A stretch of DNA of 64,000 bases from Endomicrobiales bacterium (GTDB lineage Bacteria > Elusimicrobiota > Endomicrobiia > Endomicrobiales > JALOBY01): assembly GCA_963796955.1 (NCBI GenBank), contig CAWCNJ010000004.1:128001-192000 (forward strand), written 5' to 3'. Below are positions 41,812 through 59,848 of the stretch, one piece after another. The notes under the pieces are model-generated. The model saw only the letters and a program-made list of their open reading frames with translations, was not told where the DNA came from and made no database searches. Position numbers and translations under genes: made by a program. Positions within the stretch are counted from its first letter, which is position 1; each line of letters starts with the position of its first letter.

Positions 41812-43637
41812 ATCGGATCAAACCATACATAGCCCCGCTAATAGTATTTATTCCATCGCTTGCCTTACGGTTTGTGTATTTCTCACATTTAAGGTTAAAT
41901 CAATTGTTAATGACTCCCTTTGCTGATGCCCGATATTATTACGACTGGGCGCTGTCAATTGCAAAAACTGGTGATTTGCTTGGCAAAGGTCCCTTCTTTC
42001 TTAACCCCGGCTACCCATACCTGCTTGCCTTGCTGCTAAAGATATTTGATTATAGTATACCCTCAATTATATTGTTTCAGTTTGTTGTGGGTGCGTTATC
42101 GGCAGTTCTAGTCTATTGCATTTCCAAAAAATTCCTGCCGGTGCGTTTTTCGGTAACTGCGGGCATTTTGTATGGTGTATGTTCTGTTCCGATGTTTTAT
42201 GAGGGTTTTTTGCTTACCTTTGTTTGGATAACGCTATTTAACTTGATAGCGATGCTGAGTGTTCTTAATACAGAGGGCAAAAACGCATGGAAATGGTTGG
42301 CGTTGGCCGGCCTAAACATAGGTCTTTCTGCCATATTTCGGCCAAATATATTGTTGCTTGTGCCATTGTGTGTTGGTTGGATGTGGTTTTACACCAGAGA
42401 AAGCATATTTAAAAGCCTTCTTATTTTTTTTCTACCTATATTCCTGGTCTTAGCCCCGGTAATAATACGGAACGTAGTTGTACTAGGAGAACCCGTGATT
42501 TCCAGTGTGAGTACCGGTATCAATTTGTACATCGGAAATAGTGAACATTCTGACGGTTCAAATATGGCTATTTTTAAACTTGCTCCCCTTGCTAGCTCGC
42601 CTAAACATATGCTTGATACCTTCAAACAGCTAGCAGAAAAAGATTCTAAGATATCTTTGTCTTACTCTCAGGTTGACCGTTATTGGGAGAGGCAGTCTCT
42701 GAACTGGATTTATAATAATAAAGCTCGTTCTCTTCATAATCTTGTGAATAAGTTTTTGTTGTTTGTAAATGCTCGAGAAATAGAAAGTAATGTGCCGTTC
42801 TATTTAACAAAAAAAGTGGTGTTCCCACTGGCGTTTTGTCCGGGTGTCGGATGGTTCATTCCTTTTGCTGTGGTTGGTTTTTTTGTTTTCTGGAGAGATA
42901 AGAATAGTATGTTGTTAAGGGCATTTTTTGCTGTCCAGATAACAACTGTACTGATTATTTTTATGCTTAGCGAGTATCGGGCTCCTGTAATACCAGTTCT
43001 TGTAATATTTGCAATGGCAGGAGCGTATTGGCTATATGGGAAAGCTAAGCAAAAAGACTATCAAGGAATCTCAATTGCCTCGTGTTTTTTCTTTGTTCTC
43101 GTATTTATCTCTAACTGGAATAGAGCATCAGCGGCGACCGCCGGTTCGACTCTTTGGGAAGGCAGGTATGCCATGCAGGCAGGTGATTACATGAAAGCTG
43201 AAGAGCTCTTTCGTAAATCAATTTCAATTGACAGGTCGAACGTGGCTGGATATCAATACTTAGGTATCCTATACTTTTCTAAAGGACAATTTACATTGGC
43301 ACGCCAATGTTTTGAAAAAACCATAAGCATTTCTCCGACAACAGAAACGTATATTAGTCTTGGAACCATAGCCTTGAGACAAAATGATGCAACATTGGCA
43401 AAGAAAAACTTTGAGAAGGCAGTGCTGCTCGATGTCGGGGATTCTCGGGCAATAGACGGTCTAGCATGTGCTGAGTTTCTGTTAGGTGCACAAGATCGCT
43501 CATACCAATTGTGGGAACATGCATTGCACATCGTGTCTGATGAGAAACAACGTTCTATGATATTGACCAATGTTGCACTTGCGGCGAAGCAAAACAAAAA
43601 ATTTAATGAGTTAATCGAACAAAACAAAGGGGGGTAA
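41808..43637 (+). CDS. Polytopic GT-C (GT39/PMT/ArnT-like) glycosyltransferase with C-terminal TPRs
   Basis: DARYYYDWA first loop, PGYPYLLA, FYEG, RPN, GINLYIGN, EYRAP motifs; many hydrophobic helices; 3-4 TPR-like repeats. Confidence 0.82.
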   Translation: MNRIKPYIAPLIVFIPSLALRFVYFSHLRLNQLLMTPFADARYYYDWALSIAKTGDLLGKGPFFLNPGYPYLLALLLKIFDYSIPSIILFQFVVGALSAVLVYCISKKFLPVRFSVTAGILYGVCSVPMFYEGFLLTFVWITLFNLIAMLSVLNTEGKNAWKWLALAGLNIGLSAIFRPNILLLVPLCVGWMWFYTRESIFKSLLIFFLPIFLVLAPVIIRNVVVLGEPVISSVSTGINLYIGNSEHSDGSNMAIFKLAPLASSPKHMLDTFKQLAEKDSKISLSYSQVDRYWERQSLNWIYNNKARSLHNLVNKFLLFVNAREIESNVPFYLTKKVVFPLAFCPGVGWFIPFAVVGFFVFWRDKNSMLLRAFFAVQITTVLIIFMLSEYRAPVIPVLVIFAMAGAYWLYGKAKQKDYQGISIASCFFFVLVFISNWNRASAATAGSTLWEGRYAMQAGDYMKAEELFRKSISIDRSNVAGYQYLGILYFSKGQFTLARQCFEKTISISPTTETYISLGTIALRQNDATLAKKNFEKAVLLDVGDSRAIDGLACAEFLLGAQDRSYQLWEHALHIVSDEKQRSMILTNVALAAKQNKKFNELIEQNKGG

Positions 43638-43641
43638 TGTT

Positions 43642-46152
43642 ATGGGAGCGATGCGGCGCTTTATCGTTTTGACGATAGTTGCAATGGTGTCTTACTTGGC
43701 GTGCCTTGGTGCCGCAGATGTCCCTCAAATGATGAACTTTCAAGGACAATTCTCTAGCGGGTCTATTACTCTAGATTTTTATATCTCTTCCGGCGCAACA
43801 ACCGGAATGCGGCTGCCAACAAGCAGCCCTTGGCACGAAACATTGTCTACATCAACTGCCGATGGTTATATCAGCTACCTGTTGGGCAGTCAAAGCGCGA
43901 TTCCTAAATCAATTTTCACAGATAGTTCGACGATACGATACCTTGAAATTGTAGAAAATAGCTCATCCCAATTTATGCAACTTGTCTCTGTCCCTTTTGC
44001 ATACAGGGCATCATTCTCCGACAACGCGATGTATGCTGAAAGTTTAGCAGGCGGCGCTACTATTTCAGGTGACTTAAATGTTTCTGGTTTAGTATCGATG
44101 AGTAGTGTAACAATCAATAGTGCGATTTTACGATCCGGAAGCACGGCATACGGCACAAATGCCAACACGCATATATGTCTTGGGGCCAACAGCATTACTG
44201 GAGATGTTAACAATTTCTCGTACTGTACGATCAGTGGGGGTTATGGTAACTATGCAAAAGGTGCGTATTCTTTCATTGGCGGTGGGCTAAATAACAGTGC
44301 TGGTTGTTATGGTTGGAGTGGTATAAACACTGTTATCGGTGGTGGTAGCTCGAATGTAGCAAAAGACGAATACTCGGCTATCTTAGGAGGCTGGAATAAT
44401 TCAAATGAAGGATATTGTTCGGCGATTGGTGGGGGACGAAACAACACTATAACCTATTCATCCCCGGAAAATGGCTATTACTCAACCATTCCAGGTGGCC
44501 GCGATAATGGGATAACTGGTAGTTACTGTTTTGCGGCTGGAAGGCGTGCCAAGGCTCAATCGGAAGGAGTATTCGCTTTATCAGATTCTCAAGATGCTGA
44601 TTTTGTTGTAAATTCAGACAATGTCTTTGGTTCACGCTTTAGTGGTGGCTATTGGTTTACTGGTGGGAATGTAGGTGTAGGAACAACCTCGCCTCAGTAT
44701 AAACTTCAAGTTAACGGACAATTTAGTTCAGGTAATTATTCGATATTTACATCCAGTTCGCTGGTTGGGGTAAAAGAAATTATCTTTCAGGATGGAACAA
44801 CACAAAACACTGCAAATATCCAATGGTCAGCAACTGGTAACGATATTTATCGGTCGGTAGGCAATGTTGGTATTGGTGTTCCCAATCCATCTGCGAAGTT
44901 AACCTTTGATGGTGGTTTATTGAGGTATGGAAGTTCTATGTTAGGCTCTGCGGCCAATACACATATTTGTCTTGGAATGGAAAGCACAACTGGCAGAACT
45001 ACTGGGTATAATGGGCAATACTGTACAATTACTGGTGGTTATTGTAACCAAGCAACTTCTGATTTTGCCGTTGTGGATGGTGGGCATCAAAATATAGCAT
45101 CAGGATATTCATCAAGAGTCCTTGGGGGTGAATATAATACGGCGGCTGGCGATCATTCATGCGCAATAGGAACGAAGGCTCAGGCGAACGCGCTCGGTTC
45201 CTTTGCATTAACAGATTCACAGTGGTCCTATTTTACCGTTAATTCAACTGATACATTCGGAGCAAGATTTCAGGGAGGTTATTGGTTGACCGGTGGTAAT
45301 GTTGGCATTGGGATTACCCCTAGCTCATCAACTTTAACGGTGAACGGTACAATTCTTGCAATTTCAAGTATTACCGCTGGCGCATTCGTTGGTAATGGCG
45401 CAGGGCTGACAAATCTTCCGGTTCCTGGGAATATGGTTACTGTTGATTCAATACAAACGATAACCGCGCAAAAGATATTTCAGAATTCCGTCGGGATTGG
45501 AACCGCTTCCCCAAGAACTACATTGGATGTTAATGGCGGCATAACCGCCGTCTCCAGCATCACCGCCTCCGGCGGATTCTACGGCAAAGCCTCAGGCTTG
45601 ACCGATCTACCTGTTTCTACAAATGTAGTAACAACTGACACCACTCAGAACATTTCAGGAAACAAGACCTTTACTGGAATAACTTTCGGTGTCGTGCCAA
45701 CAGGAACAGTTTTGCCTTATATAGTAAGCATATCGACGATGCCTGCGGGTTTCCTCTATTGCAACGGTCAGGTGGTTTCACGTTCGACCTACGCTACACT
45801 CTTTGCGCTTATCGGCACTGCTTTTGGTTCCGGTAACGGCAGTACTACATTTAATTTGCCTGATATGCGGGGAATGTTTCTCCGCGGAGTGGATGACGGA
45901 CGAGGATATGATTCTGAAGCTAACCGTGTAATAGGTTCTACGGAAACTGATACACTTCAAGGACATAAGCACTCAGTCCAAGCTCAAGTGGTGTCAGTAA
46001 GCAATGTTTATTTGCCCTTCACTCCTACTGCATGTCCTTTAGGAGATGGCAATACAGGTGTCCCTATATCCGATGGTATGAATGGGACCCCTCGTACATC
46101 TAAGGAAACTCGTCCACAGAACATAGCTATTGCTTATATCATCAAATACTAA
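43642..46152 (+). CDS. Exported tail-fibre-like protein with C-terminal phage tail-collar domain
   Basis: Signal peptide then VPQMMNFQG; GGxxNxA repeats; GNVGIG repeats; VPTGTVLPY...GFLYCNGQxVSRSTYATLFALIGTAFGSGNGSTTFNLPDMRGMFLRG...ETRPQNIA. Confidence 0.85.
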   Translation: MGAMRRFIVLTIVAMVSYLACLGAADVPQMMNFQGQFSSGSITLDFYISSGATTGMRLPTSSPWHETLSTSTADGYISYLLGSQSAIPKSIFTDSSTIRYLEIVENSSSQFMQLVSVPFAYRASFSDNAMYAESLAGGATISGDLNVSGLVSMSSVTINSAILRSGSTAYGTNANTHICLGANSITGDVNNFSYCTISGGYGNYAKGAYSFIGGGLNNSAGCYGWSGINTVIGGGSSNVAKDEYSAILGGWNNSNEGYCSAIGGGRNNTITYSSPENGYYSTIPGGRDNGITGSYCFAAGRRAKAQSEGVFALSDSQDADFVVNSDNVFGSRFSGGYWFTGGNVGVGTTSPQYKLQVNGQFSSGNYSIFTSSSLVGVKEIIFQDGTTQNTANIQWSATGNDIYRSVGNVGIGVPNPSAKLTFDGGLLRYGSSMLGSAANTHICLGMESTTGRTTGYNGQYCTITGGYCNQATSDFAVVDGGHQNIASGYSSRVLGGEYNTAAGDHSCAIGTKAQANALGSFALTDSQWSYFTVNSTDTFGARFQGGYWLTGGNVGIGITPSSSTLTVNGTILAISSITAGAFVGNGAGLTNLPVPGNMVTVDSIQTITAQKIFQNSVGIGTASPRTTLDVNGGITAVSSITASGGFYGKASGLTDLPVSTNVVTTDTTQNISGNKTFTGITFGVVPTGTVLPYIVSISTMPAGFLYCNGQVVSRSTYATLFALIGTAFGSGNGSTTFNLPDMRGMFLRGVDDGRGYDSEANRVIGSTETDTLQGHKHSVQAQVVSVSNVYLPFTPTACPLGDGNTGVPISDGMNGTPRTSKETRPQNIAIAYIIKY

Positions 46153-46879: not shown

Positions 46880-47275
46880 ATGAAAACACGGTTCGCGATG
46901 AAAATGATGCTGTTGACGATCGGCCTGCTGCTGAACAGCTGGGGCGCCCCCCGTTTCACGGCCCAGCTCACGCAGCCGCTTGTTGTCAGCGTCACCAATT
47001 ACCCGAACCCGTTCGACAGCCGCTGCGAGAGGACCACCATCCTGCTCTCGCTGGCGCAGGAATCGCAGGTAAGCATTTCCATCTACGATCTGCTGGGTAA
47101 CATGGTGCGGCAGTTCCCTTCGATGAGCGAGGATGCCGGCACCACCAGCATTGTCTGGGATGGGACGAACGATGACAAGGAGAAAGTGGCAAAAGGCGGA
47201 TATCTGGTGCTGGTCGTGGCCAATAGTGAGGCCGGTACATCCCAGGTAATACGAAAGGTCGGCGTTTTGCATTAG
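46880..47275 (+). CDS. Signal peptide + stand-alone T9SS/FlgD-Ig-like CTD protein
   Basis: GGAG RBS; TNYPNPF...IYDLLGNMVR...WDGTNDDKEKVAKGGY...IRKVGVLH*. Confidence 0.85.
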   Translation: MKTRFAMKMMLLTIGLLLNSWGAPRFTAQLTQPLVVSVTNYPNPFDSRCERTTILLSLAQESQVSISIYDLLGNMVRQFPSMSEDAGTTSIVWDGTNDDKEKVAKGGYLVLVVANSEAGTSQVIRKVGVLH

Positions 47276-47285
47276 TGACAAAAAA

Positions 47286-48923
47286 ATGAAAAAGAAACTG
47301 GCAACCACCAATCTCATAGCGATCTTCAAGTCTCTGGCCTGCTGCGCCAAAGCGCTTGTGGTGGTTTGCGTTGTTCTCTTCGGACTTCTGATTTCGGACT
47401 CTGGACTGGTGTATGCCGACAACACCGGCGGCCAGGCTGGCCAGTTCCTTGCCTGGGGCGCCGGAGCCCGTTCTCTGGGGATGGGCGCGGCCTTCTTCGC
47501 TGTAGCTAATGACGCATCGGCAACATACTGGAACCCCGCCGGGCTGCCGCAGCTGGACCGCAAGGAGCTTATGGCGCTGCACGTAACGTTGTTCGCCGAT
47601 ACGACCTACGATTTTATTTCTTACGTACATCCGACGCCGAACCTGGGCGTTTTCGGTATAAACCTGACCCGTTTATATTCCACGGGATTTGAAAAAGTTA
47701 ACATCACGTTTGATTCCACAAAGACCGACATCGTCGACATTCAAAGCATGGGAACATTTGATGATTCCCAGACCGCCCTTACCCTGGCGTACGGCAAGAA
47801 TATCCGCGACGGCATTGCGATCGGCGGTTCGTTCAAGTATATAACCCACACGCTGGATACCTCAACGAACGGATTCGCTACCTTCGACGTAACATCGCTG
47901 GTGACCGGCGTAACTTCGGCGCTGCCGGACATGAAGATGGCCTTCGGCATAAACAACATCATGAGCAGCGCTTTCGGCGACACGGAAGACAAACTGCCGA
48001 TGATACTTCGCGCAGGCATTTCGCAGCCGTTCCTGAAGAACAAGCTGCTGCTTGCGGCCGATATGAACAAAGGCATGAGCTCGGACATGGAGTGGCACCT
48101 GGGCACCGAATACTGGCTGCTGAATTTCGCAGCATTGCGCGTGGGCTTTAAAGGCCAGCAGGGCATCAGCGAAACAACGGCCGGATTCGGTCTGAGATAC
48201 CGCGATTACGGATTTGACTATTCTTTCGGGCTGACGGATCTGGGTATGTCGCAGCGGGTGAGCGGTTCCTGGCGCTTCGGCCTCTCCGTGAACCAGAACA
48301 AGGAAGCCCTGGTTCGCCGCTACATTCAGGAAGGCATGGAAGCATACACCAAGGGTAATTTCCTTCTTGCGCTGAATCGCATGGAAGCGGCTCTTGACAT
48401 AGACCCGTCCAACAAGGACGTCCAGAAAATGTCTAAACGTCTGCAGATGGTCATAGGCTTTATACCGTCCGCCAAAGCTGAGAACGAGGAAGAGACGGCT
48501 ATCCGCAAGGGTGTGGCCGCCTTCACCGAGAACGATGACAAGGGCGCCATAAACGCCTTGCGCTACGCCTATTACAAGAACCCCGCGAACCTGAAAGTGC
48601 TGCACCTGTTGAACGCTATGGAAAAAGAAATGGGTATCAGTATCACACCGGTATATAAGGAAGAGGCGGCCGGCTTTACCATGCTGGATCAGAAAATTTA
48701 TGATGCGCGCCAGGCTATTATTGAAGGTAAATATGATCAGGCGCTGATCAAGTGCCAGGATATAATGAACCTGGAGCCGGAAAACGTGACCGCACTTGAA
48801 ATGATGGGTTCTGCCTTCTTCATGATGGACCAGCCGGAAAAGGCGAAGCAGGTATGGATGAAAGTGCTTGAGATAGATCCGTCGAACAAGGTGGTACCTG
48901 AGTTCCTTAATCAGTTGAAGTAA
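47286..48923 (+). CDS. PorV/PorQ-family beta-barrel fused to C-terminal TPR repeats
   Basis: FLAWGAGARSLGMGAA...NDASATYWNPAGL; barrel ends ...DYSF...QRVSGSWRF; then about 200 aa of TPR-like helices (ALDIDPSN, LEPEN, LEIDPSN). Confidence 0.87.
   Translation: MKKKLATTNLIAIFKSLACCAKALVVVCVVLFGLLISDSGLVYADNTGGQAGQFLAWGAGARSLGMGAAFFAVANDASATYWNPAGLPQLDRKELMALHVTLFADTTYDFISYVHPTPNLGVFGINLTRLYSTGFEKVNITFDSTKTDIVDIQSMGTFDDSQTALTLAYGKNIRDGIAIGGSFKYITHTLDTSTNGFATFDVTSLVTGVTSALPDMKMAFGINNIMSSAFGDTEDKLPMILRAGISQPFLKNKLLLAADMNKGMSSDMEWHLGTEYWLLNFAALRVGFKGQQGISETTAGFGLRYRDYGFDYSFGLTDLGMSQRVSGSWRFGLSVNQNKEALVRRYIQEGMEAYTKGNFLLALNRMEAALDIDPSNKDVQKMSKRLQMVIGFIPSAKAENEEETAIRKGVAAFTENDDKGAINALRYAYYKNPANLKVLHLLNAMEKEMGISITPVYKEEAAGFTMLDQKIYDARQAIIEGKYDQALIKCQDIMNLEPENVTALEMMGSAFFMMDQPEKAKQVWMKVLEIDPSNKVVPEFLNQLK
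47379..47408 (+). repeat. 4 degenerate heptamers (TTCGGAC-like) inside a signal-peptide coding region
   Basis: TTCGGAC TTCTGAT TTCGGAC TCTGGAC; reverse complement of the aptamer-2 loop repeat. Confidence 0.75.
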
Positions 48924-48996
48924 AATATAAGAGTATCTAAAAGGATCTGGTTTAAAAAGATGCAACAGCTTACAAAAGTTTTTAAACAAAACACGC

Positions 48997-49041
48997 TGAA
49001 AAGCCCGACACTCTGTGAAAAAACAGGGAGCCGGCTTTTCA
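48997..49041 (+). other. Intergenic hairpin between PorV-TPR and the FliF-FliG gene
   Basis: TGAAAAGCC...GGCTTTTCA outer stem with CTCTGT/ACAGGG inner stem; function unclear. Confidence 0.5.
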
Positions 49042-49073
49042 TTGCCTTATACCATATTCAACAGGAGCTCATT

Positions 49074-50843
49074 ATGAAATTGGTCGCGCGGGCGCTGTTC
49101 TTCTGTCTGCTGGTGCTGATGCCGGCCTTTGCCGCATCCACCGACAACAGCGGCGGGGGTAAGACCGCCGAGATTTCATTGCTTGAACAGGAATCAAAAT
49201 TTGAGAAAGACAAGTCGGACTATCTTCAGCAGAACGTGGTAGACAAGATACTGGGGCCCGGCAACGCCGTGGTGATCGTTGACGTGGAGCTGGGCATAGA
49301 GACCAAAGTTACGAACCAGGGCGCGAAAGAGAAAAAAACCGAGCGCAAGAAGCGCCTCGGTGAAGTGGAATATCTGCTGCCCGGCGTGCCGAACCCGAAG
49401 TCTGTCGCGAACGAATCCCAGCCGGGCGAATCGAAAGAAGAGACGGGAGCCGCGGAAGAAACGAAAACAGAATCAAAAACGGTCATAAAGAAGCTGCAGG
49501 TAACGGTGCTTTACGATGAAAAAATAGTCCAGGAGAAACTGGATACCGTTAAAGAAGCTATTATAAATTTCCTTAAGCTGGACCCGAAGCGCGGCGACAA
49601 GATAGAGTTCAAGAAAACAAAATTCACCAGCGGATTCTTCGAAGAAATGATGAAGCCGCTGATACTGATTCCTCTTATCATAGCGCTGCTGGTATTGTTC
49701 TTTCTGTTCGGGCCGTTGGCCAGTTTTTTCCGCAATTATGTGCGTACGCTTGCTGAACACGGCGGAACAGAAGTTACCGTCGACTCAAAATTTGAAGGTG
49801 ATAAGGGCGATGAGGAAGGAGCCGGTGGCGCAGGCGGCGGTGGCGTGGGAGAAGGCATTCTCGGCGAAGGCGACGGTAAGAAATATATACCTTTTGAATA
49901 TATAAACGATGACAATCTGAAAAGGCTTGTCTATCTGGTAAAGCGCGAGCCGCCTGAAACGATATCGCTGGTGGTCAGCTACCTGAAGCCCGAGTACGTT
50001 AAGGAACTGCTGAACGCCCTGACACCGGAACTGCAGGCGAAGGTGGCCACCGAAATGGCGACGATCCGCTCGCTGGACATGGATGATGTTCAGAAAGTGG
50101 ATAACTACATAAAGGAAAAGATAGAGTTCCTTATCGGCGGATTGTATCACCTGCTTAACGTGCTTGATAAAGTAGACCCGATCACGCAGTCCAATATATT
50201 CGAATACCTTAAGAATGAAAAACCGGACCTGTATGAAATGGTGCGGAAATTCGTGCTGATGTTCGACGATATACCCAATTTCCCGGACCAGGCGATGCAG
50301 GTGATAATCCGCGAGCTTAAGACCCAGGATATGGCGAAAGCACTGCGCAACGCCGAGCCCGAGATCATGAACAAATTCCTTGCCAATATGTCGACGAACG
50401 CTTCCGCCATTTTAAAAGAAGAAATGGAGTACGGCAGGCCCCTTACCGATGCCGAGGTTGAGGAAGGCCGCAAACAGCTGATGGATGTGGTAAAGAAGCT
50501 GGAGGCGGAGAACAAAATATTCCTGCGCGAAAAGCCGAAGTCCGGCGTGCTGGAAGGCCTGGAGGCCGGTAGCAACGATAACACCAGCTACAACGAATAT
50601 TATCAGGCAGGCGTGGGTTCTTATGAAGCGGGGGAGTACGACGCGGCCTTGCCTTACCTTGAATACTGCACACAGCTGGATCCTACACAGCCGGCGGGCT
50701 TTCAATATCTGGGCGCTGCATATTACGCGCTTGGGCGTACCGCCGAAGCGGTAGCAGCGTACGAAAAAGTGGTTGAGCTGGACCCGACCAACGAAGAACT
50801 AAAAAACTGGCTTGCTTCGCAGAGCGCCAATAAACTCGCATAA
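49074..50843 (+). CDS. FliF C-terminal (RBM3/beta-collar)-TM-FliG middle + C-terminal domain-TPR fusion protein
   Basis: AGGAG RBS then MKLVARALFFCLLVLMPAFA; VDKILGPGNAVVIVDVEL, LPGVP, IKKLQVTVL, LDPKRGDKIEF (FliF-like); one TM helix; PFEY...EPPETISLVVSYL (FliG_M); GG...LMFDD...KFLANMS...LKEEMEY (FliG_C); TPRs. Confidence 0.85.
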   Translation: MKLVARALFFCLLVLMPAFAASTDNSGGGKTAEISLLEQESKFEKDKSDYLQQNVVDKILGPGNAVVIVDVELGIETKVTNQGAKEKKTERKKRLGEVEYLLPGVPNPKSVANESQPGESKEETGAAEETKTESKTVIKKLQVTVLYDEKIVQEKLDTVKEAIINFLKLDPKRGDKIEFKKTKFTSGFFEEMMKPLILIPLIIALLVLFFLFGPLASFFRNYVRTLAEHGGTEVTVDSKFEGDKGDEEGAGGAGGGGVGEGILGEGDGKKYIPFEYINDDNLKRLVYLVKREPPETISLVVSYLKPEYVKELLNALTPELQAKVATEMATIRSLDMDDVQKVDNYIKEKIEFLIGGLYHLLNVLDKVDPITQSNIFEYLKNEKPDLYEMVRKFVLMFDDIPNFPDQAMQVIIRELKTQDMAKALRNAEPEIMNKFLANMSTNASAILKEEMEYGRPLTDAEVEEGRKQLMDVVKKLEAENKIFLREKPKSGVLEGLEAGSNDNTSYNEYYQAGVGSYEAGEYDAALPYLEYCTQLDPTQPAGFQYLGAAYYALGRTAEAVAAYEKVVELDPTNEELKNWLASQSANKLA

Positions 50844-50866
50844 AAGTTACTTTGGGAGACCAAAAA

Positions 50867-53800
50867 ATGGACATCTTTAAAAACAAAAAACCGGCTGAAG
50901 GGACCAACCCCCAGGTGGAGACGCCACGGATGGCAGAGCCCCAGCCGCCAACCGCGCAGCCGCCCGTTCCGGTGATTTCCGACAGCCAGGCTATGGCCGA
51001 GGCCAGGGCCCGCGCGCGTGAACAGTTGAACCTTATGGAGCAAAAGATCGCTCAGGAGCGCGAAGCCTGGTCGCATAAAGTCAAGGAAAAGGCCGAAGAG
51101 CAGGTTTCCTGCAACGCGAAGCTGGATATGCTGGTAAATCGTATCGCTCTTGAACGCGAGCGCCATGAAGCGGAGCTTGTCCTTATGCAGCAGAGCATCG
51201 ACAACGATCTTAAGTCTATCGACGCGGCGCTGGAAGCTGAGACCGCAAAATGGACGGAGCGCCTTTCGTTGAAGGATAAGGATATTGAAGATGCCAGGCA
51301 CCGCTCGGCCTTTGAAGAGACCCAGAAGAAAATAGAGTCTGAACAATCCCTGCGCGCTCTTAAAGTTGAAAAAGACGCGCTGGAACAAAAATTCAAAAGC
51401 CTGCAGCGCTCCATGCTGGAAGAACAAAATAAGTGGCTCGGCCAGATACGGCTGAAAGAAGAAGAGATCGTAAACCTTAAAACACAGATCGCGTTGCACG
51501 AAGAACAGATGAAAACCGACGAAGAAAAGAACACGTTGACCAGGAAGGAGTCGGAAGAAAACTGGCATACGCAGATAAAGGAGCTGGAGGAGCGCCTGGA
51601 TACCCAGCGCACCGACTGGACCCGCGTGCTCGCGAAAAAAGAAGAAGAGCTTTCAGCCATCAAAACAACGCTGGAGCAAAAACTTTCCACCCTTGCGATA
51701 GAGACCGAGCGCAAAGAGAACGATATCCGCCTTCTCAAGACCCGCATGGAAGAACGCATCAAGGCCGCCGAAGAATCCCTGAACGGAGAGAACGCGCGCT
51801 GGCAGCAGCTGCTGGGAGAACGCGATGAGGAGTTTAAAAAACTGCGCGTGGAGCTGATGCTGCGCGACAGTCAGGAAAAAACCGAACGCCAGAAAAAATA
51901 TCAGGACCTTAAAGACGCCGAATCCACCGCCTCCCGCCGGATCCGCGAGGCGAAACAAAAACTGGAAGATGAAAAACAGGTCTGGCAAAAGCGTATAAAC
52001 GATAAAGATGAAGAGCTGAAGAACCTCAAGATCCAGGCCGAGCTTAAGCTGAAAGATATCCAGGACGACCGGGCACTCCGGCAGCGCCGCGCTGAGGAAG
52101 AAAAATCAGCGCTCTCAGCCACGCTCGCAAGCTTGCAGGAAAAACTTGAAGAAGAACGCGTTACTCTGCAAAAAAGCGTTGCGGAAAAAGACGCGGAGAT
52201 AGAAACCTGCCAGCAGCAGTGGCAAAATACGCACGATGCGATGACCCGGGAAGGCGAAGCTCACATCAAAGAGCTGCGGGCGCAAAAAGACAGTTATGAA
52301 AGAGAAGTGCTTGCCCTGGAAGCCCAGCTGGCCCAGGAAAAACAGAAATGGAATACATTGATTCAGGAAAAGGACAAGCAGCTCTCTGTCGCGCGCGCCG
52401 AATATAACGCCAGAGAAGCGCTGGTGCACCAGGAACTGAATATACTGGAAGAACAGTTGCGCAAAGAGCAGCAGCCGCTGCTGCGACAGGTGCACGATAT
52501 TGAAGGAAAAGTAGGGGAATTGCAGCGCGCCGCCCAGATAGAGATATCGCACCGCGAGACCCAGAAAAAATCGTTACAGGATCAATTTCAACGCCGCGAA
52601 GAGAATCTGCGCCAGCGCCTGAATATTCAAATAGAGAAGATCAAGGATTCGGAAAATTCTCTCGCGGGCCGTGTTGCCGAAATAAAGGCGCATATGGACG
52701 CGCAGGGAAAAGAGGCGCAGTCAAGGCTTGAGGCTCTCGAAGAAGAAGGACGTCTGATCTCCGGACAGATGTCGCAGGAACATGAGCGGATAGAGGCTGA
52801 GAAAGCCAAGTTGTCTGAAAAATATTTGTCTGCCAAACTGGAACTTGAAGAGAGTATTAAAAAACTGGAAAACGAATACGACCTGATGCATACGACCTTG
52901 CAAGCTGAAATAGAGGAAAAGACCTCGGAACTTGCCGGCGAAGAGACCCGTCTGCACGCTGCCGAAGAAAGGATCGCAAAAGAAACAGCACAGCGCGAAA
53001 AAGAGTTCGCGGACCTTAAGGCCCGCGGCGACAGCCAGCTGGCGCAGCTGAGCGGCGAACTGGAAGCGCTTAAGAAACGCAATGACACCGATATACGTTC
53101 CCAGGTCGCCCAGCTGGAACTGCTGCGGCGCCAGGGCGCGGCGCGTGAGCAGGAGATGGCGGCGGATATAGAGGTCATCAGGCAGAACTCCGAGTCGGAA
53201 TTGAAACCCATGGCGGACCGCAAGGAGCAGCTGCGCTCACAGCTGGATTCCCTGCGCGCGCAGTCACAGACGAAACTGAAAGCCATCGACGGGCGCATTA
53301 GCGCGCTTCGGGCGCAGCATGACGCTATCGAAAAAGAATTCCTGGGCAGAAAGAACGTCGTCACGGAATCAATAAACGGTGTACAACGTGACAGTGAAGG
53401 AAAACTCCGCGCGCTTCAAAACGAACGCACGGAGCTGGAAGCTGCGTTTGCCCGCGAAATGTTGTTGAAGGAAGAAGAATTCTCAGCTCTCGAAAAAGAA
53501 GTGAACGGGCATGTGCAATTATTACAGCAAAAGAAGGATGCGGAGCGCGAAGAAGCCCGTATGCAGATGGAAAGCATGCGCGCCGACATAGACAAACTGT
53601 ATGAAGAAGTCTCGCGGGTTGAGACGGAATACCCGGAAATACTGGCCACGCGCCAGGAAGAACTGGTTTCTCTTGAAAAACAGGTCAATGAACGCGCGCA
53701 ATATTATCAGAAACAAACCCTTCAGGCGGAAAAATCGCTTGAGAATTATCAGCGTCGGGCCGAAAGCCGCATAGAGACCGTCCGGACGCAGCTGGACCAG

Positions 53801-55753
53801 ATGGTGGCGCGCCATAAGACAGAACTGTCCGTGCTGGAAGCGAAAATAACGGCGGTAAAGAAACAAACGGAAGAAAAAGAGAAGGCGCTCAACGACGAAC
53901 AGAACCGCGAAGGCCGCGTCTTCGTGGATGAAAAATACCGTCTGGAAAAACAGAAGGCCGAGCTGGAAGAAAAATTGAAAGATGTGACCTTCACTTCACG
54001 CGATCAGATAGGGAAAAAGGAAAAAGAGATCTCCGCCCTGCAGCTGGACCTGGCCGCCAAAGAACGCCTGTGGGAAGAGGCATGGCAGAAGAAGGAAATG
54101 GAGTTGGAAGCCGAGCGCGTCGTGCTGACCAGGGAGCAGGAAAGCCTTGAAGTCCGCCTGAAGAACGAGGAACAGATCTCTTCCAGCCGTCTGGCCCAGA
54201 AAGAGAACGAGATACATCAATATATGGCGCAGGCGGAGACACGGCTTAAGGCCCTTGAAGCCGACATCGAAGCTAAACGCGGCGCCTGGGACGAATCTAA
54301 AAAAGCGCTGGTAGAACAAATAACCGCCCATGAAGCGACGCTTGCGACACTGCAGCAGAATTGGCGCGAGAGCATGGCACGCAAGGACAAAGAACATACC
54401 GCGTTGAAGTCCAACCTCGAGTTCTGGGAACTGCGCACCAAGACCGAAGAAGAAAAACGCATGGCGGACTGGGAGAAGGAAAAATTCTCCCTGGAAGAGA
54501 AAGTAAAACACGTTACGGAGCAGATCTCTTCGCTGCAGTACGATTCAGCGGCCAAACTGGCCGAACGTGAAAAACAGCTTAACTCCGACAAAGAATCGGC
54601 ACGGCTGGCGGAGGAATCATCCGCCGCGCAGTGGCGTGAGACCGAGACGATGCTGAGCGGCCAGCGCGATTCCCTGATGCAGGAAGTTTCATCGTGGGAA
54701 AAGAAGATCAAGGACGAGACCGCGCAATATGAAAAGGAAAGCCGGGAGCTGGACAAGGATATTGAAAAACTGAAGCTGGAAAGCGCCCTGAAAGATGCCG
54801 GCATCCAGGCGAGTCGCCACAAACTTGAACGCGACTGGTTCAAGGCGCTGCGCCGGCTGGAAGGGCAGCTGGAGACCGTGAGCCGCCGTTACATCGAAGA
54901 AAAAGATTCCTGGACGGGTAAGATCCACCTGATCGAGGAAGAGATAAATACCTTCAAGGTGCGTCTTGGCATGCGCGAAGACCGCCGCCAGGCCGAGATC
55001 ACACGGCGCCAGGATGAACTGCGCAAGATAATCAACGAACTGGAGAACGAAGTGAAGGGTATGTACGCCAGATACAGCGACGCGGTGCTCGGCAAGAAGG
55101 AGTGGGTGACCAAGCGCAGCCAGCAGCTGGCAGAGCTTCGTGCCCAGCTGGCCGAGAAAGAAACCGTATGGCAGCGCGAGCAGTCGGCGAAAGAAGCTTC
55201 GCTGACCGGTGTCTTCGAGCAGTTCGGCTCCGATCTGTCGGACATGGAAAAGTCGCTGAAGGAAGAAACCGGTAAATTCGAAAAGCTGCTGGGACTGAAA
55301 CAGAAACAATTACAGAATATTATGGCGCAGATGGCCGGCAAGGAAGAGGAGCTGGTGCGCGAGCGTGAATTCAGTCAGAACACCTTAAGCAAATTGCATA
55401 CGAAAGCCGCGGAATTCAAGCAGCAGATAGAAGCTGAGTTGCGGGCTTTGTCGGCGGGCAAACAGGAACAGCGCTCCCATGTGCATATTTTTGACGAGGC
55501 GATGGAGCTGTACTCTCAACAGAACTTTGGCGCCGCCCTTGAACGGCTGGAAGCCCTGGTGAGCCAGCATCCGCGTTTCCCCGGCGCCCTGCAATATATG
55601 GCGCTGTGCAGCTTCGAACAGGGAAAACTTGCCGAGGCGGTGCAGTTCGCCGAACGGGCCTTCGAGCTCGACGGCAGCAATGAGTCTCTCAAGGAATGGA
55701 TACTACAACTCAAACAAGCGGCACGTTCACATATATCAGATTCTAATAATTAA
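50867..55753 (+). CDS. Very long cytoplasmic coiled-coil protein (24 x 61-aa period) with C-terminal TPR
   Basis: GGAG RBS before ATG 50867; Pro-rich head; E/K/Q/R/L-rich rod; no signal peptide, TM helix or Walker A; FDEAMELY...ALQYMALC...AFELDGSN TPR tail. Confidence 0.88.
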   Translation: MDIFKNKKPAEGTNPQVETPRMAEPQPPTAQPPVPVISDSQAMAEARARAREQLNLMEQKIAQEREAWSHKVKEKAEEQVSCNAKLDMLVNRIALERERHEAELVLMQQSIDNDLKSIDAALEAETAKWTERLSLKDKDIEDARHRSAFEETQKKIESEQSLRALKVEKDALEQKFKSLQRSMLEEQNKWLGQIRLKEEEIVNLKTQIALHEEQMKTDEEKNTLTRKESEENWHTQIKELEERLDTQRTDWTRVLAKKEEELSAIKTTLEQKLSTLAIETERKENDIRLLKTRMEERIKAAEESLNGENARWQQLLGERDEEFKKLRVELMLRDSQEKTERQKKYQDLKDAESTASRRIREAKQKLEDEKQVWQKRINDKDEELKNLKIQAELKLKDIQDDRALRQRRAEEEKSALSATLASLQEKLEEERVTLQKSVAEKDAEIETCQQQWQNTHDAMTREGEAHIKELRAQKDSYEREVLALEAQLAQEKQKWNTLIQEKDKQLSVARAEYNAREALVHQELNILEEQLRKEQQPLLRQVHDIEGKVGELQRAAQIEISHRETQKKSLQDQFQRREENLRQRLNIQIEKIKDSENSLAGRVAEIKAHMDAQGKEAQSRLEALEEEGRLISGQMSQEHERIEAEKAKLSEKYLSAKLELEESIKKLENEYDLMHTTLQAEIEEKTSELAGEETRLHAAEERIAKETAQREKEFADLKARGDSQLAQLSGELEALKKRNDTDIRSQVAQLELLRRQGAAREQEMAADIEVIRQNSESELKPMADRKEQLRSQLDSLRAQSQTKLKAIDGRISALRAQHDAIEKEFLGRKNVVTESINGVQRDSEGKLRALQNERTELEAAFAREMLLKEEEFSALEKEVNGHVQLLQQKKDAEREEARMQMESMRADIDKLYEEVSRVETEYPEILATRQEELVSLEKQVNERAQYYQKQTLQAEKSLENYQRRAESRIETVRTQLDQMVARHKTELSVLEAKITAVKKQTEEKEKALNDEQNREGRVFVDEKYRLEKQKAELEEKLKDVTFTSRDQIGKKEKEISALQLDLAAKERLWEEAWQKKEMELEAERVVLTREQESLEVRLKNEEQISSSRLAQKENEIHQYMAQAETRLKALEADIEAKRGAWDESKKALVEQITAHEATLATLQQNWRESMARKDKEHTALKSNLEFWELRTKTEEEKRMADWEKEKFSLEEKVKHVTEQISSLQYDSAAKLAEREKQLNSDKESARLAEESSAAQWRETETMLSGQRDSLMQEVSSWEKKIKDETAQYEKESRELDKDIEKLKLESALKDAGIQASRHKLERDWFKALRRLEGQLETVSRRYIEEKDSWTGKIHLIEEEINTFKVRLGMREDRRQAEITRRQDELRKIINELENEVKGMYARYSDAVLGKKEWVTKRSQQLAELRAQLAEKETVWQREQSAKEASLTGVFEQFGSDLSDMEKSLKEETGKFEKLLGLKQKQLQNIMAQMAGKEEELVREREFSQNTLSKLHTKAAEFKQQIEAELRALSAGKQEQRSHVHIFDEAMELYSQQNFGAALERLEALVSQHPRFPGALQYMALCSFEQGKLAEAVQFAERAFELDGSNESLKEWILQLKQAARSHISDSNN

Positions 55754-55775: not shown

Positions 55776-58700
55776 ATGGCCGACGAAAAGTTACCAAAAG
55801 TTCCACCGTTACCGCCCGCAAGACCAGCCGGGAGCGGACCAACCCCGCCGAAGCCGCCTATGCCGGGGGCCGGTGCCAACCCGCCCGCGGTGAAACCGGC
55901 GTTGCCGGGTAAGCCCGCGATAAATCCGGCGGCGGCGCCGCGCCCTATGCCCGGGCAGGCGGCTCGTCCTCCTGTGAACACCCAAACCCAGCGAAACGTA
56001 ACGCCGGCCCAGCCGTCCACCGGCTATTCTGAGGTTGACGATGCCCGCAACGCGCTGGAAGGCCAGATAAACGAACTGCAAAAACAACTGCAGTCCGAAC
56101 GCGAGAAGCTGCTGCTGCAGACCGTGCGCGCAAAGAAGAAGAAGCGATGTCGGCCAAAGTTGAAGAATCGATCAAGGATATTCAGGAACGTGTCCGCCGG
56201 GAAAAACGCGATCAGGAATTGCAGGAATCGCTGGCGAAGGCCGAAGCGTACAATAAAGAGATGGAGGCGCGCCTTGCCGCCGAGCGCCAGACCTGGGTGG
56301 AGACCCTTAAAACGCAGATCGGCCAGAAAGATTCGCAGGAAAAAGAAGTGGAATACCAGTTCGAGCTGCGCATGAAGGAGCTGGAACGCCGCTGGCATGA
56401 GGAAAAACTCGCCTGGTCGCAGGCCATCAAAGCGAAAGACGAAGAGGTGATACGTCTGCACCGTGAAAAAGAGAGCGCGGTAGGCGAAGAGCGCGCAGCT
56501 TCCGAGAAACGGGTAACCGAACTTACCCGGGAACGCGAGTCCCTGCAGCGTGAGCTGATCGATGTACGCGATGTACGCCAGGAAGAGCGCAGCTCGCTTC
56601 TGGAAAAACTTGAGGGCCGCGATAAGGAGTTCATGGGCCTGAAGGCCCAGCAGGCGATGCTGGTGACCCAGGTGCGCGAAGCTAAAGACAAACAGGACCA
56701 GATGCGCCAGCTGCTGGAAAAATTCCGCGCTGAAAAAGAGAACCTGCATTCGCTGCTGGAAAATAAGGATAAAGAGTTCTACCTGTTCAAAACGCAGTTC
56801 GCCCTCTACCAGACCCGCTCAAAATCGGAGCAGGAAAAGCTGCTTAAGGAACTGGTATTGTTCAAAGATCAGATGGGCAAGGACGCGCAGCAATATTCCA
56901 GCGTCCTGCGCGCCAAAGAAGAAGAGATGAACCTGCTGCGTCGCGCTAACGAAGGCAGGGAAAGCGAGATCCGTAACCAGTTGGAAAAGAAAGAACAGGA
57001 AGTCGCCTCAACGGCGGCGCAATACGAGGCTCGCATAAAAACGCGCGAAGCCGAACTGCGTTACGAACTGGAACGCAAGGAAACGGAACTTAAAGGTCAG
57101 ATAGTCCATATTGAAGAACAGGTCAGAGCGCGCGTCGGTGAAATTGAGAACCTGAAAGAACGTCATACCGAGCAGCTGCGCGCCAGGGACGGCGATATAA
57201 AGAGCGCGGCGGAAAAACTGGCGGCTATGCAGGTGGAAGTTGCCGTTGCCAGACAAAATACACAGTCCGCCGAACAGCGTATGGCGCTTGCACAATCAGA
57301 GGCTGCCAGGCTCAAGGAGATCATAGAAGAAAAAGAAGTTGACGCGGCTTCCGCACAGGCACAGTTCACCGCCCGCCTTGAGCAGGCTGCTTCCGAAGTG
57401 CGTCAGGCGACCGAACGCGAACAGGCGCTGCGCCTTGAGCTGGCTGTCGCCCGGCAGAACATGCAGGTTTTTGAAACCCGCATAGCAGCGGCGCAGTCGG
57501 AAGTTGCCGGGCTTAAAGAAGTGATCGCGAGAAAAGACGCTGAAGCTTCTGAGCGCCAATCGGAGTTCAGCTCACGCCTGGAGCAGGCGGCATCGCAGCT
57601 GCGCTCCGTGCAGGAACGGGAGCAGACGCTGAAAGTAGAACTGGCTTCTGCGGCCGCCGTGCGCCATGATCTTGAAAAAGCGGTGGAGAGAGAACACGAG
57701 GAAGCGGAGCGCCAAAAAGCTCAGATCGTTGAAAATGAAAATCTTTACCGGAACGGCTTATCCCAGAAAGATACGGTCATCAGCGCCAAAGAACTTGAAC
57801 TTGCCGGCATGCGTGAAACAATAGCGGCTCTTCGTATGGAACTGGTTAAAAACGAAAGTATGCAGCGCGAGCTTACCGTGGCGAATGACCGTCTTGACGT
57901 GGCATTATCCCAGGCAAACGCGGCCTTAAGCGATCGCGATATGCGCCTCGCCAGGGCCGGCGACAGGGAGAAGGGCCTTGCTGATACTATCAACGAACAT
58001 GTCAATGAATTGTCCGCTGTCCGCGCAAGCCTTGCCGCGGTTGAAAATGAAGCGGCCGCGTTGCGCGGCGCGATAACCGAACGGGACGGCCGGATAAAGG
58101 AAGGCGACCGCAAGGAAGACGAACTGCGCGCTCAACTCCTTTCGAAAGAAGGTGAGATCAACACCCTGCGCGAGACGATGCAGCAGCGCGAGGCGATGCT
58201 GGTGACGGTGCAGACCCAGGCCGAACGCCGCGAGAACGACATGAAGATCGCCTTCGCCCAGCGTGATGCCGAACTGAACAACCGCTGCGCGGCCCTTGAG
58301 GCGACGCTGGTTGAGAAAGACCGTTTCCTCGCCGGTTCCGCCGAAAAAGAACGCGCCTTATCGAACGCCCTGGCGAAAGAAGAGGAAAAAGTTTCCGAGC
58401 AGCTGGAACACGTGAGGGAACTTGTTTCAAGAGAGAACGAGCTCAAGATGTCTCTTAACCAGAAAGAGAACGCGTATGCCGCTGAACGCGCCGCGATAGA
58501 ATCGCGCATAGCGGAGCGCGACCGCCAGCTTACCCAGCAGGCGCAGGCGTTTGAGGCTGAGCGCAGAAAATACGAAGAAGCCGTCTCACGGGCGGAACGT
58601 TCATTGCAGGAAGCTTCAGCGGCCGCTCAGCTGCAGCTTGCCTCCCGTGAAAAAGAGATCGAACGCCTTAACAGCGCGGTAGCGGCCGCCCAGCATGCGG

Positions 58701-59848
58701 TCAATGCCGCCAAACAGGAAAACGCCCTGCATGAGCAGGAATTGCAGCTGGGCGCAAAACAGCGCGAAGCCGCTCTGCTTATTGATATAACCAACGCCCG
58801 GGAAAAAGCTAAGAAGGCCGAGCAGGTCCTCAGCGATTCTCAGCGTCAGCACCAGCATCTGCTGCTGTCACAGGAACAGAACGCGATGCAGCGCGAGGCG
58901 GCGTTGAGCGCGGAAAAGAACGCGGCAAAAGAGCTTCTGGCCGGCCTGAAAGCCGATAACGATACCCTGCGGCGCGAAGGCGAAAAAATGCTCGCCGAAG
59001 TGAACGCCAGTCAGCATCGCATGAACGAGGTAAAGGAATTATACGAGCGGCAGCTGAGAGCCAAGGAAGAAGATCTGGCCCAAATTAAGGCGAACAGGCT
59101 GGCGTTCGAAGACTCTGTGCGCCACCAGATCAATGAAGAATACCGCCGGCATCTGGAAGGGGTGCAGAGGGAAAAGCAGGACGGCGAACGCGCCTTCATG
59201 AACCAGATACAGACCCTGAGGGACACCATGCGTACCGACCTGCTGCACGTGCAGGAAACCATGACCCGCGACCACTCGCAGCTGGAACGCCAGCTGCAGG
59301 AAAAAGAGGCCCGGCTGCACGAACTCCAGCAGGCTTTAAAAGACGAAGCATTACGCGAGCAGGAACAGAAAACCGCCCTGGACAAGAATGTTGAGAGGGT
59401 GCGGGAAGAATACAAGGCATTGCTTGCAGAAGAAACAAGAAAACATGAAATGGAGCGCGATGTAATAGCGCGCAATACCAAGCATATAGACGATGAGTGT
59501 TCTTCGCTGCGCCAGAGAGCAGAGGGGCTAGCCTTTCAATTAAAACAGGCGAATGATACCCTGCAGGGGAAAAATAAGGAAGTCATGACCCTTCAGGAAA
59601 ATCTTGACACCCTGACCATTCAAAACAGGAAGCAGGCACAGTATTCTTCTAACGATGCCGCCGCGAAAACGGCTAAATTCGGCCCGGAAGACACCGTTAT
59701 ACTTGAGCCGCATGTTCCCCAGCCGCAGATCCAGCAGCCGGCGCCAGCAAAGCAGCGTAAACCGCTGATAGGCCGTATCTGGGATAATTTGAACGAACCC
59801 GTCATAGAGATCGGCGGAGATAACATGAAGAAGAAAGACCATGAATAA
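55776..59848 (+). CDS. Long coiled-coil protein with Pro-rich N-terminus (one apparent frameshift at ~56131)
   Basis: GGGAGG RBS before ATG 55776; adding one base at CGCGC^AAAGAAGAAGAA joins ORF 55776..56375 to 56147..59848 as ...TVRAKEEEAMSAK... Confidence 0.82.

Follow-up and report, generated by a model that had tools for sequence, protein, structure and literature searches.

A natural FliF(RBM3)-FliG fusion conserved in the Elusimicrobiota, the probable rotor ring of a non-flagellar envelope machine driven by MotAB

Introduction

FliF, the protein of the flagellar MS-ring, forms rings of 33-34 subunits, and to our knowledge FliG and the stator proteins MotA and MotB have been described only as flagellar parts; a rotor without a filament is usually taken as a relic. 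SpoIIIAG, a channel-ring protein, belongs to endospore formers. The GldLM/PorLM pair of the Bacteroidota is a proton-driven rotary motor of the inner membrane that acts on PorV/PorP-type barrels and on cargo with C-terminal sorting domains (CTDs), the rotary unit being GldL5M2 itself, whose shaft is the periplasmic GldM; this motor contains neither a FliG ring nor MotAB. The present study concerns one gene in a 64,000-nucleotide stretch of DNA from an Endomicrobiales bacterium (hereafter the window; positions 128001-192000 of contig 4 in a 2.1-Mb Elusimicrobiota assembly of 11 contigs, 81% complete). It encodes a domain like the third ring-building motif (RBM3) of FliF, a transmembrane (TM) helix, the middle and C-terminal domains of FliG, and a tetratricopeptide repeat (TPR) tail in a single polypeptide. 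This fusion is probably the rotor ring of a non-flagellar envelope machine that is driven by MotAB, coupled to PorV-like barrels, and conserved in the Elusimicrobiota.

A natural fusion of this general kind is known from the Chlamydiaceae, where a FliF-like periplasmic ring domain, a TM segment, and a FliG-like cytoplasmic part are joined in bacteria with no flagella. According to the available text of its description, that protein has ~330 residues, an RBM2-like region, no SpoIIIAG-like domain (RBM3), and only a FliG_M-like piece of FliG (Bergeron 2016, PMC4768692). Engineered FliF-FliG fusions of Salmonella are reported to be functional, as cited in the same text (PMC4768692). The available text of a 2025 paper on MotAB evolution has no mention of Elusimicrobia and treats FliG only as a flagellar partner (PMC12505986), a 2025 paper on periplasmic force transducers names Elusimicrobia, in its available part, only for TolA and CpoB (PMC12204202), and the accessible sections of a 2025 survey of flagellar loss point to orphan rotor proteins that possibly have other functions (PMC12199754). 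No description of a rotor-stator-barrel system was found in searches of the full-text literature, including the available portions of the surveys of stator evolution and flagellar loss, and the conserved module presented here is apparently undescribed.

Architecture of the fusion protein

The open frame of the fusion gene spans 48960-50843 on the forward strand. The start was taken at ATG 49074, giving a product of 589 residues, because this codon is preceded by AGGAG with a spacer of 7 nt and no such site precedes ATG 48960. The N-terminus of the relatives likewise consists of a short charged stretch followed by a hydrophobic part, and the reading as one open reading frame is supported by more than 100 full-length relatives that share the same architecture. 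The domain order implies that, once the N-terminus is exported, the RBM3/collar-like domain lies in the periplasm, a single helix crosses the inner membrane, and FliG_M, FliG_C, and the TPR tail are cytoplasmic. In the full-length AlphaFold2 (AF2) model (mean predicted local distance difference test score, pLDDT, 79.9), FliG_M and FliG_C were confident, the linker at residues 232-265 was disordered, and the TM helix and the TPR tail appeared, the former as a 35-residue helix at 195-229. Pfam gave no match to YscJ_FliF (RBM1/2, PF01514) at E ≤ 1 and no FliG_N domain in the fusion, the sole FliG_N match being weak (E 0.0016) and situated inside FliG_M; a Gly/Glu-rich linker occupies the place of the FliF C-terminal peptide and of FliG_N. 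Weak Pfam matches to MgtE_N, BTAD, Utp12, and others were dismissed as known cross-matches of FliG/MgtE or TPR proteins.

The Pfam match to YscJ_FliF_C (PF08345, residues 57-184) scored 25.2 bits, barely above the cut-off of 23.8, and this borderline RBM3 assignment was re-examined by a sequence profile against PDB sequences, by Foldseek, and by VIA-align, which is independent of Foldseek. The profile, built from a 44-sequence alignment of residues 25-200, gave seven matches at E ≤ 10, including six to SpoIIIAG or FliF, with best E-values of 0.0011 and 0.0025, the first to SpoIIIAG (5wc3). The AF2 model of the same residues had a mean pLDDT of 69.5 (core >85, insert <50) and consisted of a helix at 31-60, a strand at 65-82, a low-confidence insert at 83-128, a strand at 129-148, a helix at 153-167, and a strand at 176-182. 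With this model as a query, RBM3/collar chains of the FliF MS-ring took Foldseek ranks 1-18 (E 5.5e-7 to 1.4e-5) and SpoIIIAG rank 19, and VIA-align against 48,161 chains placed FliF at ranks 1-3 (Z 13.4, 12.5, and 11.6; Salmonella residues 224-438), the next chain having Z 8.5.

Like FliF in the MS-ring structures of Salmonella and Vibrio (6scn, 8z5v, and 8z4d), the fusion has the long paired strands of RBM3, an insert between the first two of them, a membrane helix directly after the domain, and a one-to-one relation with FliG. The insert corresponding to residues 83-128 forms the collar loop in FliF; in the fusion it has only ~46 residues and carries the motif LPGxPxPK, in which 50 relatives share P103 and P106 without exception and G104 and P108 almost without exception. 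In the 44-sequence alignment, which includes both paralogues from the same genome, P79, G80, P82, and P84 (alignment numbering) are conserved. The fusion further differs from FliF in lacking RBM1, RBM2, and the C-terminal peptide that binds FliG_N, FliG being covalently attached, and no export gate, C-ring, or rod genes were found in its genome. SpoIIIAG shares a split ring-building motif with a ring-building insert, and the structural match to it is weaker than that to FliF (Foldseek E 8.9e-3 versus ~1e-6; Z 7.4 versus 13.4); its system, unlike the fusion, has no FliG and no stator.

Residues 273-484 align with structures of the middle and C-terminal domains of Thermotoga maritima FliG over 212 residues (E 7e-34). 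The fusion has in common with FliG (1lkv, 3ajc; TIGR00207) the M and C domains, the Gly-Gly linker, and an acidic pair, and differs from it by the absence of FliG_N, the added TPR tail, and replacements in the EHPQR motif and at Arg281. Among 50 relatives, G355 of the linker is invariant and G356 nearly so. The acidic pair E448/E449, which we take to stand at the place of D288/D289 of Escherichia coli FliG, includes the invariant E449. The FliG equivalog model TIGR00207 scored 114.1 bits versus a cut-off of 226.7 and matched only profile positions 112-326 of 338. The model NF004606 ("type III secretion system protein"), presumably the Chlamydia-type model, gave 24.8 bits versus a cut-off of 297. 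Judged from these sequence comparisons, the protein resembles a FliF-FliG unit and is strictly a member of neither family, since it has no RBM1/2, no FliG_N, no intact EHPQR motif, and a score below the cut-off of the FliG equivalog.

An earlier note, made from the letters of the window, had read the gene as an RBM3-TM-FliG_M-FliG_C fusion with a TPR tail and without RBM1/2 and FliG_N; it had marked a FliF-C-like segment with an LPGVP beta-collar insert and a TM helix at 49659-49712, and had stated that RBM3 shares its fold with SpoIIIAG. Pfam, profile, and fold searches bear out this reading. YscJ_FliF_C, FliG_M, and FliG_C, the three families that it named, all scored above cut-off or strongly, the hydrophobic stretch falls inside the AF2 helix at 195-229, the insert lies between the first two strands, and the profile as well as both fold searches matched FliF or SpoIIIAG.

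Distribution of the fusion family

A word-indexed search retrieved 191 relatives of the fusion, of which the full-length ones listed have 576-694 residues and the same precomputed domains. Fifty relatives align end to end with a mean column identity of 43%; besides the collar motif, the Gly-Gly linker, and E449, the juxtamembrane GGTEVTVDSK and the start of FliG_M (P273, F274) are conserved. A second, shorter family of ~480-570 residues combines RBM3, FliG_M, and FliG_C without the TPR tail. It counts 162 matches at E ≤ 1e-10, with PF08345 in all 120 listed, and its alignment has P106 and G107 invariant in the corresponding collar motif and G372 and G373 invariant in the linker. The genome itself holds three FliG_C matches and every one is a fusion, namely the window copy, paralogue C6 (contig 6), and paralogue C7 (contig 7); a word-indexed search with the N-terminal domain of paralogue C6 found six close relatives. 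The organism names of the relatives are nearly always Elusimicrobia, Endomicrobiales included, and the exceptions are one Ignavibacteria metagenome-assembled genome, one Omnitrophica protein, and a few records labelled only "bacterium". In public annotation these genes appear as "hypothetical", "tetratricopeptide repeat protein", or "FliG C-terminal domain-containing protein".

A search with a profile of the periplasmic domain (profile A2, residues 25-200) over 1.84 billion representatives gave 709 proteins at E ≤ 0.001, of which 137 also passed E ≤ 1e-10. They include proteins of fusion size, canonical FliF, and short stand-alone proteins, and 13 of 15 hand-picked mid-length matches carry FliG_M and FliG_C. 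In the same representative library the RBM3-like domain was also seen with FtsK_4TM and FtsK_alpha (P0139), behind a MacB periplasmic core domain (P0246), and in an 847-residue frame where it follows a histidine-kinase core and is followed by FliG_M/C (P0242). These three may be gene-call joins.

Association with stator and outer-membrane genes

The fusion is genetically coupled to flagellar-type MotA/MotB, to a PorV-family barrel with a TPR domain or a free TPR module, and to a cytoplasmic Pro-rich coiled-coil protein. Downstream of paralogue C6 are genes for a 255-residue MotA (Pfam MotA_ExbB) and for two MotB-like proteins that carry MotB_plug and OmpA domains; contig 3 holds another MotA-MotB-MotB set beside response-regulator genes. 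These two loci, L084 11480-12817 on contig 6 and L092 10392-11851 on contig 3, each hold one MotA and two MotB-like genes. They account for the only two MotA_ExbB-family matches in the genome, both being flagellar-type stators, and the same family search found no separate ExbB or TolQ in the 81% complete assembly. The MotA of C6 matched flagellar MotA or PomA in 10 of 10 PDB sequence matches (best E 9.4e-55, full length), with no ExbB or TolQ among them. At the positions of R88 and E96 in PomA it has K/R and E. The channel Asp is kept in three of the four MotB copies in a YAD/YTD context (the first MotB of C6 and both of contig 3). All stator proteins scored below the NCBIfam equivalog cut-offs. 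Directly before both short-form paralogues stands a gene for a TolB-like PD40 propeller with fn3 (L084 7596-9167 on contig 6; L085 5489-7381 on contig 7), the protein scoring 103 bits with TIGR02800, below the cut-off of 343.

The link to the stator extends across the phylum. In a sample of 201 Elusimicrobiota genomes, MotA of the C6 type occurred in 73, with the same family pattern as FliG_C (f2 0/64, f19 0/58). Distances were taken between 150 listed FliG_C matches (171 in all) and 150 listed MotA matches (160 in all). Among the matches listed, 94 of 150 FliG_C matches had MotA within 10 kb on the same contig, 61 of them within 2 kb, and in 82 of the 94 the stator gene lay downstream; again among those listed, MotA was nearby for 58 of 71 frames of 420-600 residues and for 31 of 68 frames of at least 600. 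For the TPR-tailed family to which the window copy belongs, 80 orthologue loci were compared, and a downstream MotA was present in 44 and MotB in 38. All 20 sampled loci of the short-form family have the fusion followed by MotA and one or more MotB-like genes, with two MotB-like matches in most. The orthologue locus L063 is a compact operon of barrel-TPR, fusion, coiled coil, MotA, MotB, and a 235-residue protein whose start resembles that of a lipoprotein; the genes on either side, for efflux and glycolysis, are unrelated.

The gene upstream of the fusion encodes a barrel that scored 125.2 bits with NF033709 (cut-off 90; profile positions 3-325 of 326) and remained below the PorV and PorQ equivalog cut-offs; its helical/TPR tail has ~210 residues. 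A full-length orthologue of this barrel-TPR protein stands directly upstream of the fusion in 62 of the 80 loci, tens to a few hundred bases away, and a sorting domain homologous to that of the 131-residue protein before it lies upstream of the barrel in 41 of the 80. Seven of the 20 short-form loci have a cargo-like gene and then a full barrel-TPR gene upstream. In another 10 of the 20 the tail domain (~residues 350-545 of the barrel) occurs as a separate signal-peptide protein of ~290-330 residues after the MotB genes, as seen in other Elusimicrobiota genomes at L100 ~11400-12300, L105, L109, L111, and L112. The periplasmic TPR module, found free or fused to the barrel across the fusion loci, is thus a core partner. 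A predicted complex of the barrel tail (residues 335-545) with the periplasmic domain of the fusion scored 0.11 versus a mark of 0.32 and weighs neither way.

Downstream, a homologue of the Pro-rich coiled-coil protein is present in 60 of the 80 loci. In the window it is split into two frames (55776-56375 and 56147-59848), and the L063 orthologue is in one piece of 927 residues that aligns to the start of 56147-59848 and has the same Pro-rich head as the frame at 55776. The frame change, near 56125-56146, lies in an AAG/GAA-rich stretch, and the split reflects either an error of sequencing or a true frameshift. The 1633-residue coiled-coil gene that precedes it in the window has a high AT skew and is specific to the window's lineage, with homologues in at least 20 of the 80 loci.

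Flagellar genes in the genome and the phylum

No match to FHIPEP (FlhA), YscJ_FliF, or FliMN_C was found in the 81% complete genome, and all three were found in four flagellated control genomes. The earlier note had expected no docking surface for a type III export gate, and these absences fit. Across the phylum sample, FliG_C was present in 71 of 201 genomes and FHIPEP in five, all five among the 71, leaving 66 FliG_C-positive genomes with no FlhA match. By family, FliG_C was found in 1 of 64 genomes of f2, in none of 58 of f19, and in 69 of 78 of all others. The frames around the FliG_C matches mostly have 470-710 residues; a few have 335-370, the size of canonical FliG, and these are mostly from the genomes with FlhA. 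Since five of the 201 genomes keep FlhA and a FliG of canonical size, flagella existed in the phylum. One genome (G064) carries a canonical flagellar set, with a 335-residue FliG frame, FlhA, and a more distant MotA, plus two fusion loci that each have a closer MotA, and flagellum and fusion system therefore coexist there. The corresponding coordinates in G064 are C1:270116-290191, C5:136588-138529, and C2:147355-148425.

Other features of the locus

The features of the fusion gene and of its neighbors in the window are given in Table 1.

Table 1. Coordinates (window numbering) and basis of assignment of the fusion gene, its domains, and adjacent genes.
Feature	Position	Strand	Basis
131-aa secreted protein, little beyond a type IX secretion system (T9SS) type-A C-terminal sorting domain (FlgD_ig / Por_Secre_tail)	46880..47275	+	FlgD_ig 42.5 bits; TIGR04183 29.6 bits (cut-off 23)
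PorV/PorQ-family outer-membrane barrel (~residues 50-336) with C-terminal, presumably periplasmic helical/TPR domain (~336-545)	47286..48923	+	NF033709; Pfam UPF0164 and TPR
FliF(RBM3)-TM-FliG(M,C)-TPR fusion protein, 589 aa	49074..50843	+	Single ORF; Pfam; alignment; AF2
Signal peptide or signal anchor, residues 1-20 (AFA|A, 18-21)	49074..49133	+	Read off the sequence by eye; AF2 helix 2-14, then low-confidence stretch
Periplasmic RBM3/beta-collar-like domain, residues 31-184	49164..49625	+	Pfam YscJ_FliF_C; PDB profile; Foldseek; VIA-align
Motif LPGVPNPK, residues 102-109, in low-confidence insert 83-128	49377..49400	+	Conservation in alignments
Single TM helix, residues ~195-217, then basic residues and conserved cytoplasmic GGTEVTVDSK	49656..49724	+	AF2 helix 195-229; consensus of relatives
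Gly/Glu-rich low-confidence cytoplasmic linker, residues ~230-272	49761..49889	+	pLDDT <50 at 232-265
FliG_M, residues 284-351	49923..50126	+	Pfam 50.2 bits; alignment to T. maritima FliG MC structures
FliG_C, residues 378-484, torque-helix region NMSTNASAILKEEMEY	50205..50525	+	Pfam 95.6 bits; alignment to T. maritima FliG
Cytoplasmic two-repeat TPR tail, residues 507-581	50592..50816	+	Pfam TPR_2, TPR_1, TPR_19; AF2 helices 504-588
1633-aa protein, nearly all coiled coil, TPR module at the end	50852..55753	+	TPR (1547-1610) the sole Pfam match; neither signal peptide nor TM helix seen in the sequence by eye
Pro-rich N-terminus and coiled-coil protein, conserved downstream partner, split in two frames	55776..59848	+	Alignment with L063 orthologue

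Most of the window before the barrel gene (2-39995) is taken up by giant genes on the same strand, encoding 1524+, 2503, 2626, 944, 465, 326, 362, 1304, 2511, and 651 residues. Some carry bacterial Ig-like domains, the last has a FlgD_ig/CTD-like end, and six have no Pfam match; the products probably serve as the surface cargo of this locus. The segment 40001-46152 has a G+C content of 0.41-0.46 compared to 0.55-0.58 elsewhere, and the genes there include a second, tail-less PorV-family barrel (40879-41811), a PMT_2 and TPR membrane glycosyltransferase-like gene (41808-43637), and an 836-residue protein with a phage tail collar domain (43642-46152).

Discussion

A driven rotor is more likely than a passive ring or conduit because, throughout the phylum, the fusion is genetically linked to MotA/MotB and to the PorV-family barrel-TPR protein. 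By analogy with FliF, the RBM3 domains would assemble a many-membered ring in the periplasm, and, FliG being fused one-to-one, each subunit of the ring would add one FliG unit beneath the membrane. Stators of the MotA5MotB2 type, anchored to peptidoglycan, would then turn the ring via FliG_C at the expense of the proton gradient, the window copy using the orphan stator set of contig 3 or that of contig 6. In the least secure step, the collar loops with LPGxPxP(K) might transmit movement or force, within the periplasm, to the TPR domain of the PorV-like barrel, from which it could reach surface proteins bearing T9SS-type sorting domains. The complete scheme, a stripped-down motor of RBM3-FliG rotor and MotAB that has no export apparatus, rod, hook, filament, or C-ring and hands torque to the TPR domains of PorV barrels carrying T9SS-type surface proteins, is put forward tentatively, as a possible arrangement that is less likely than not to hold in full. 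GldLM is the closest functional analogue of such a machine, with the same logic and unrelated parts.

Compared to the Chlamydiaceae protein, the fusion keeps RBM3, FliG_M, FliG_C, and a TPR tail, and its family sits with MotAB. The suggestion of the earlier note that the opposite part of FliF has been kept in the two cases agrees with the available text of the chlamydial description (PMC4768692).

Several observations weigh against a rotor driven by MotAB. No MotA lies within 10 kb of the window copy or of its closest relatives (L004-L016), where giant coiled-coil genes follow instead, and the second MotB of C6 has Asn at the position of the channel Asp. The charge pairs of the canonical torque interface are only partly kept: Asn replaces the Arg equivalent to R281 of E. 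coli FliG, paralogue C6, which lies beside MotAB, has KQMM in place of the acidic pair, and the torque-helix consensus of the short-form family differs again. Paralogue C7 has KETM in the acidic-pair region. The EHPQR motif is degenerate, with EPPE where T. maritima FliG has EHPQ, and the absences of flagellar genes are provisional in a genome that is 81% complete. SprA-like frames of ~1800 residues occur in 176 of the 201 genomes, including 56 of 58 in f19, a family that lacks the fusion and MotA.

The alternative that survives best, although unlikely, is a static envelope scaffold or conduit, as the earlier note had read it, in which RBM3 and FliG would form a fixed platform or channel and MotAB, if involved, would send force to the outer membrane in pulses in the manner of TolQR/ExbBD, with no sustained turning of a ring, as a Tol-Pal/TonB analogue. 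RBM3 is common to the non-rotating channel ring of SpoIIIAG, and some paralogues conserve the charges of the torque helix poorly. Tol-Pal-like pieces are moreover present at the loci, including the PD40 propeller (C6 and C7), OmpA-type peptidoglycan-binding domains, and TPR proteins, and both MotA_ExbB matches of the genome are the stators described above, with no separate TolQ or ExbB found. However, the stator A subunit is a complete one of the flagellar kind, large cytoplasmic domain included, as its PDB matches to MotA and PomA indicate, and a mere scaffold would not need FliG_M, FliG_C, and a Gly-Gly linker conserved throughout the phylum. The PD40 protein, for its part, did not turn up in the 20 short-form loci taken from other genomes.

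A narrower form of the driven-rotor reading, to which we give a small chance, is a dedicated energizer of T9SS-like secretion or surface movement that replaces GldLM and would power the export, anchoring, or sideways movement of giant CTD-bearing surface proteins by way of PorV-like barrels. All three paralogues follow genes for CTD cargo and a TPR-tailed barrel (by profile, the barrels of the window and C7 loci belong to the PorV family), and the same upstream order was noted above for 7 of 20 short-form loci, with a CTD domain upstream in 41 of 80 orthologue loci. The genome gave no match to GldL or GldM, and it has a SprA-like frame of 1828 residues on contig 8 (~81890-85096, L088-L091) that matches the SprA model in four collinear pieces. 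Each of these pieces is nevertheless below the 200-bit cut-off, the GldL and GldM searches matched no control genome either, so that their absence is not established, and the compact L063 operon has no adjoining cargo gene. As SprA-like genes occur without fusion and MotA in f19, the machine is not generally required for T9SS-like export across the phylum. The idea of the fusion-stator pair as an obligatory motor of a phylum-wide T9SS-like system was lowered on account of the SprA-like genes in families without the pair.

That the fusion is a functionless remnant of a lost flagellum is scarcely credible: five of 201 genomes do still have FlhA and a FliG of canonical size, and rotor genes without filaments occur in 11% of non-motile species according to the available text of the flagellar-loss survey (PMC12199754), yet the architecture and its invariant motifs are conserved in more than 100 full-length relatives at 43% mean column identity, several paralogues occur per genome, the synteny with stators, barrel-TPR, and coiled-coil protein is fixed, and the fusion coexists with a complete flagellar gene set in G064.

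Conclusion

The fusion represents half of a motor that is conserved together with its stator in most of the families of the phylum that are not host-restricted, multiplied within genomes, and tied to outer-membrane barrels. If it rotates, it would constitute a new class of envelope machine and a natural minimal system for the study of torque, made of one rotor polypeptide and a stator, and, should the complete scheme also hold, it would provide a third, independent way to power outer-membrane secretion or gliding. If that scheme is true, the module would either be a present-day counterpart of a rotor-stator module that preceded the flagellum or re-use such a module in a radical way. The finding bears on how the flagellar motor and the export apparatus came together.

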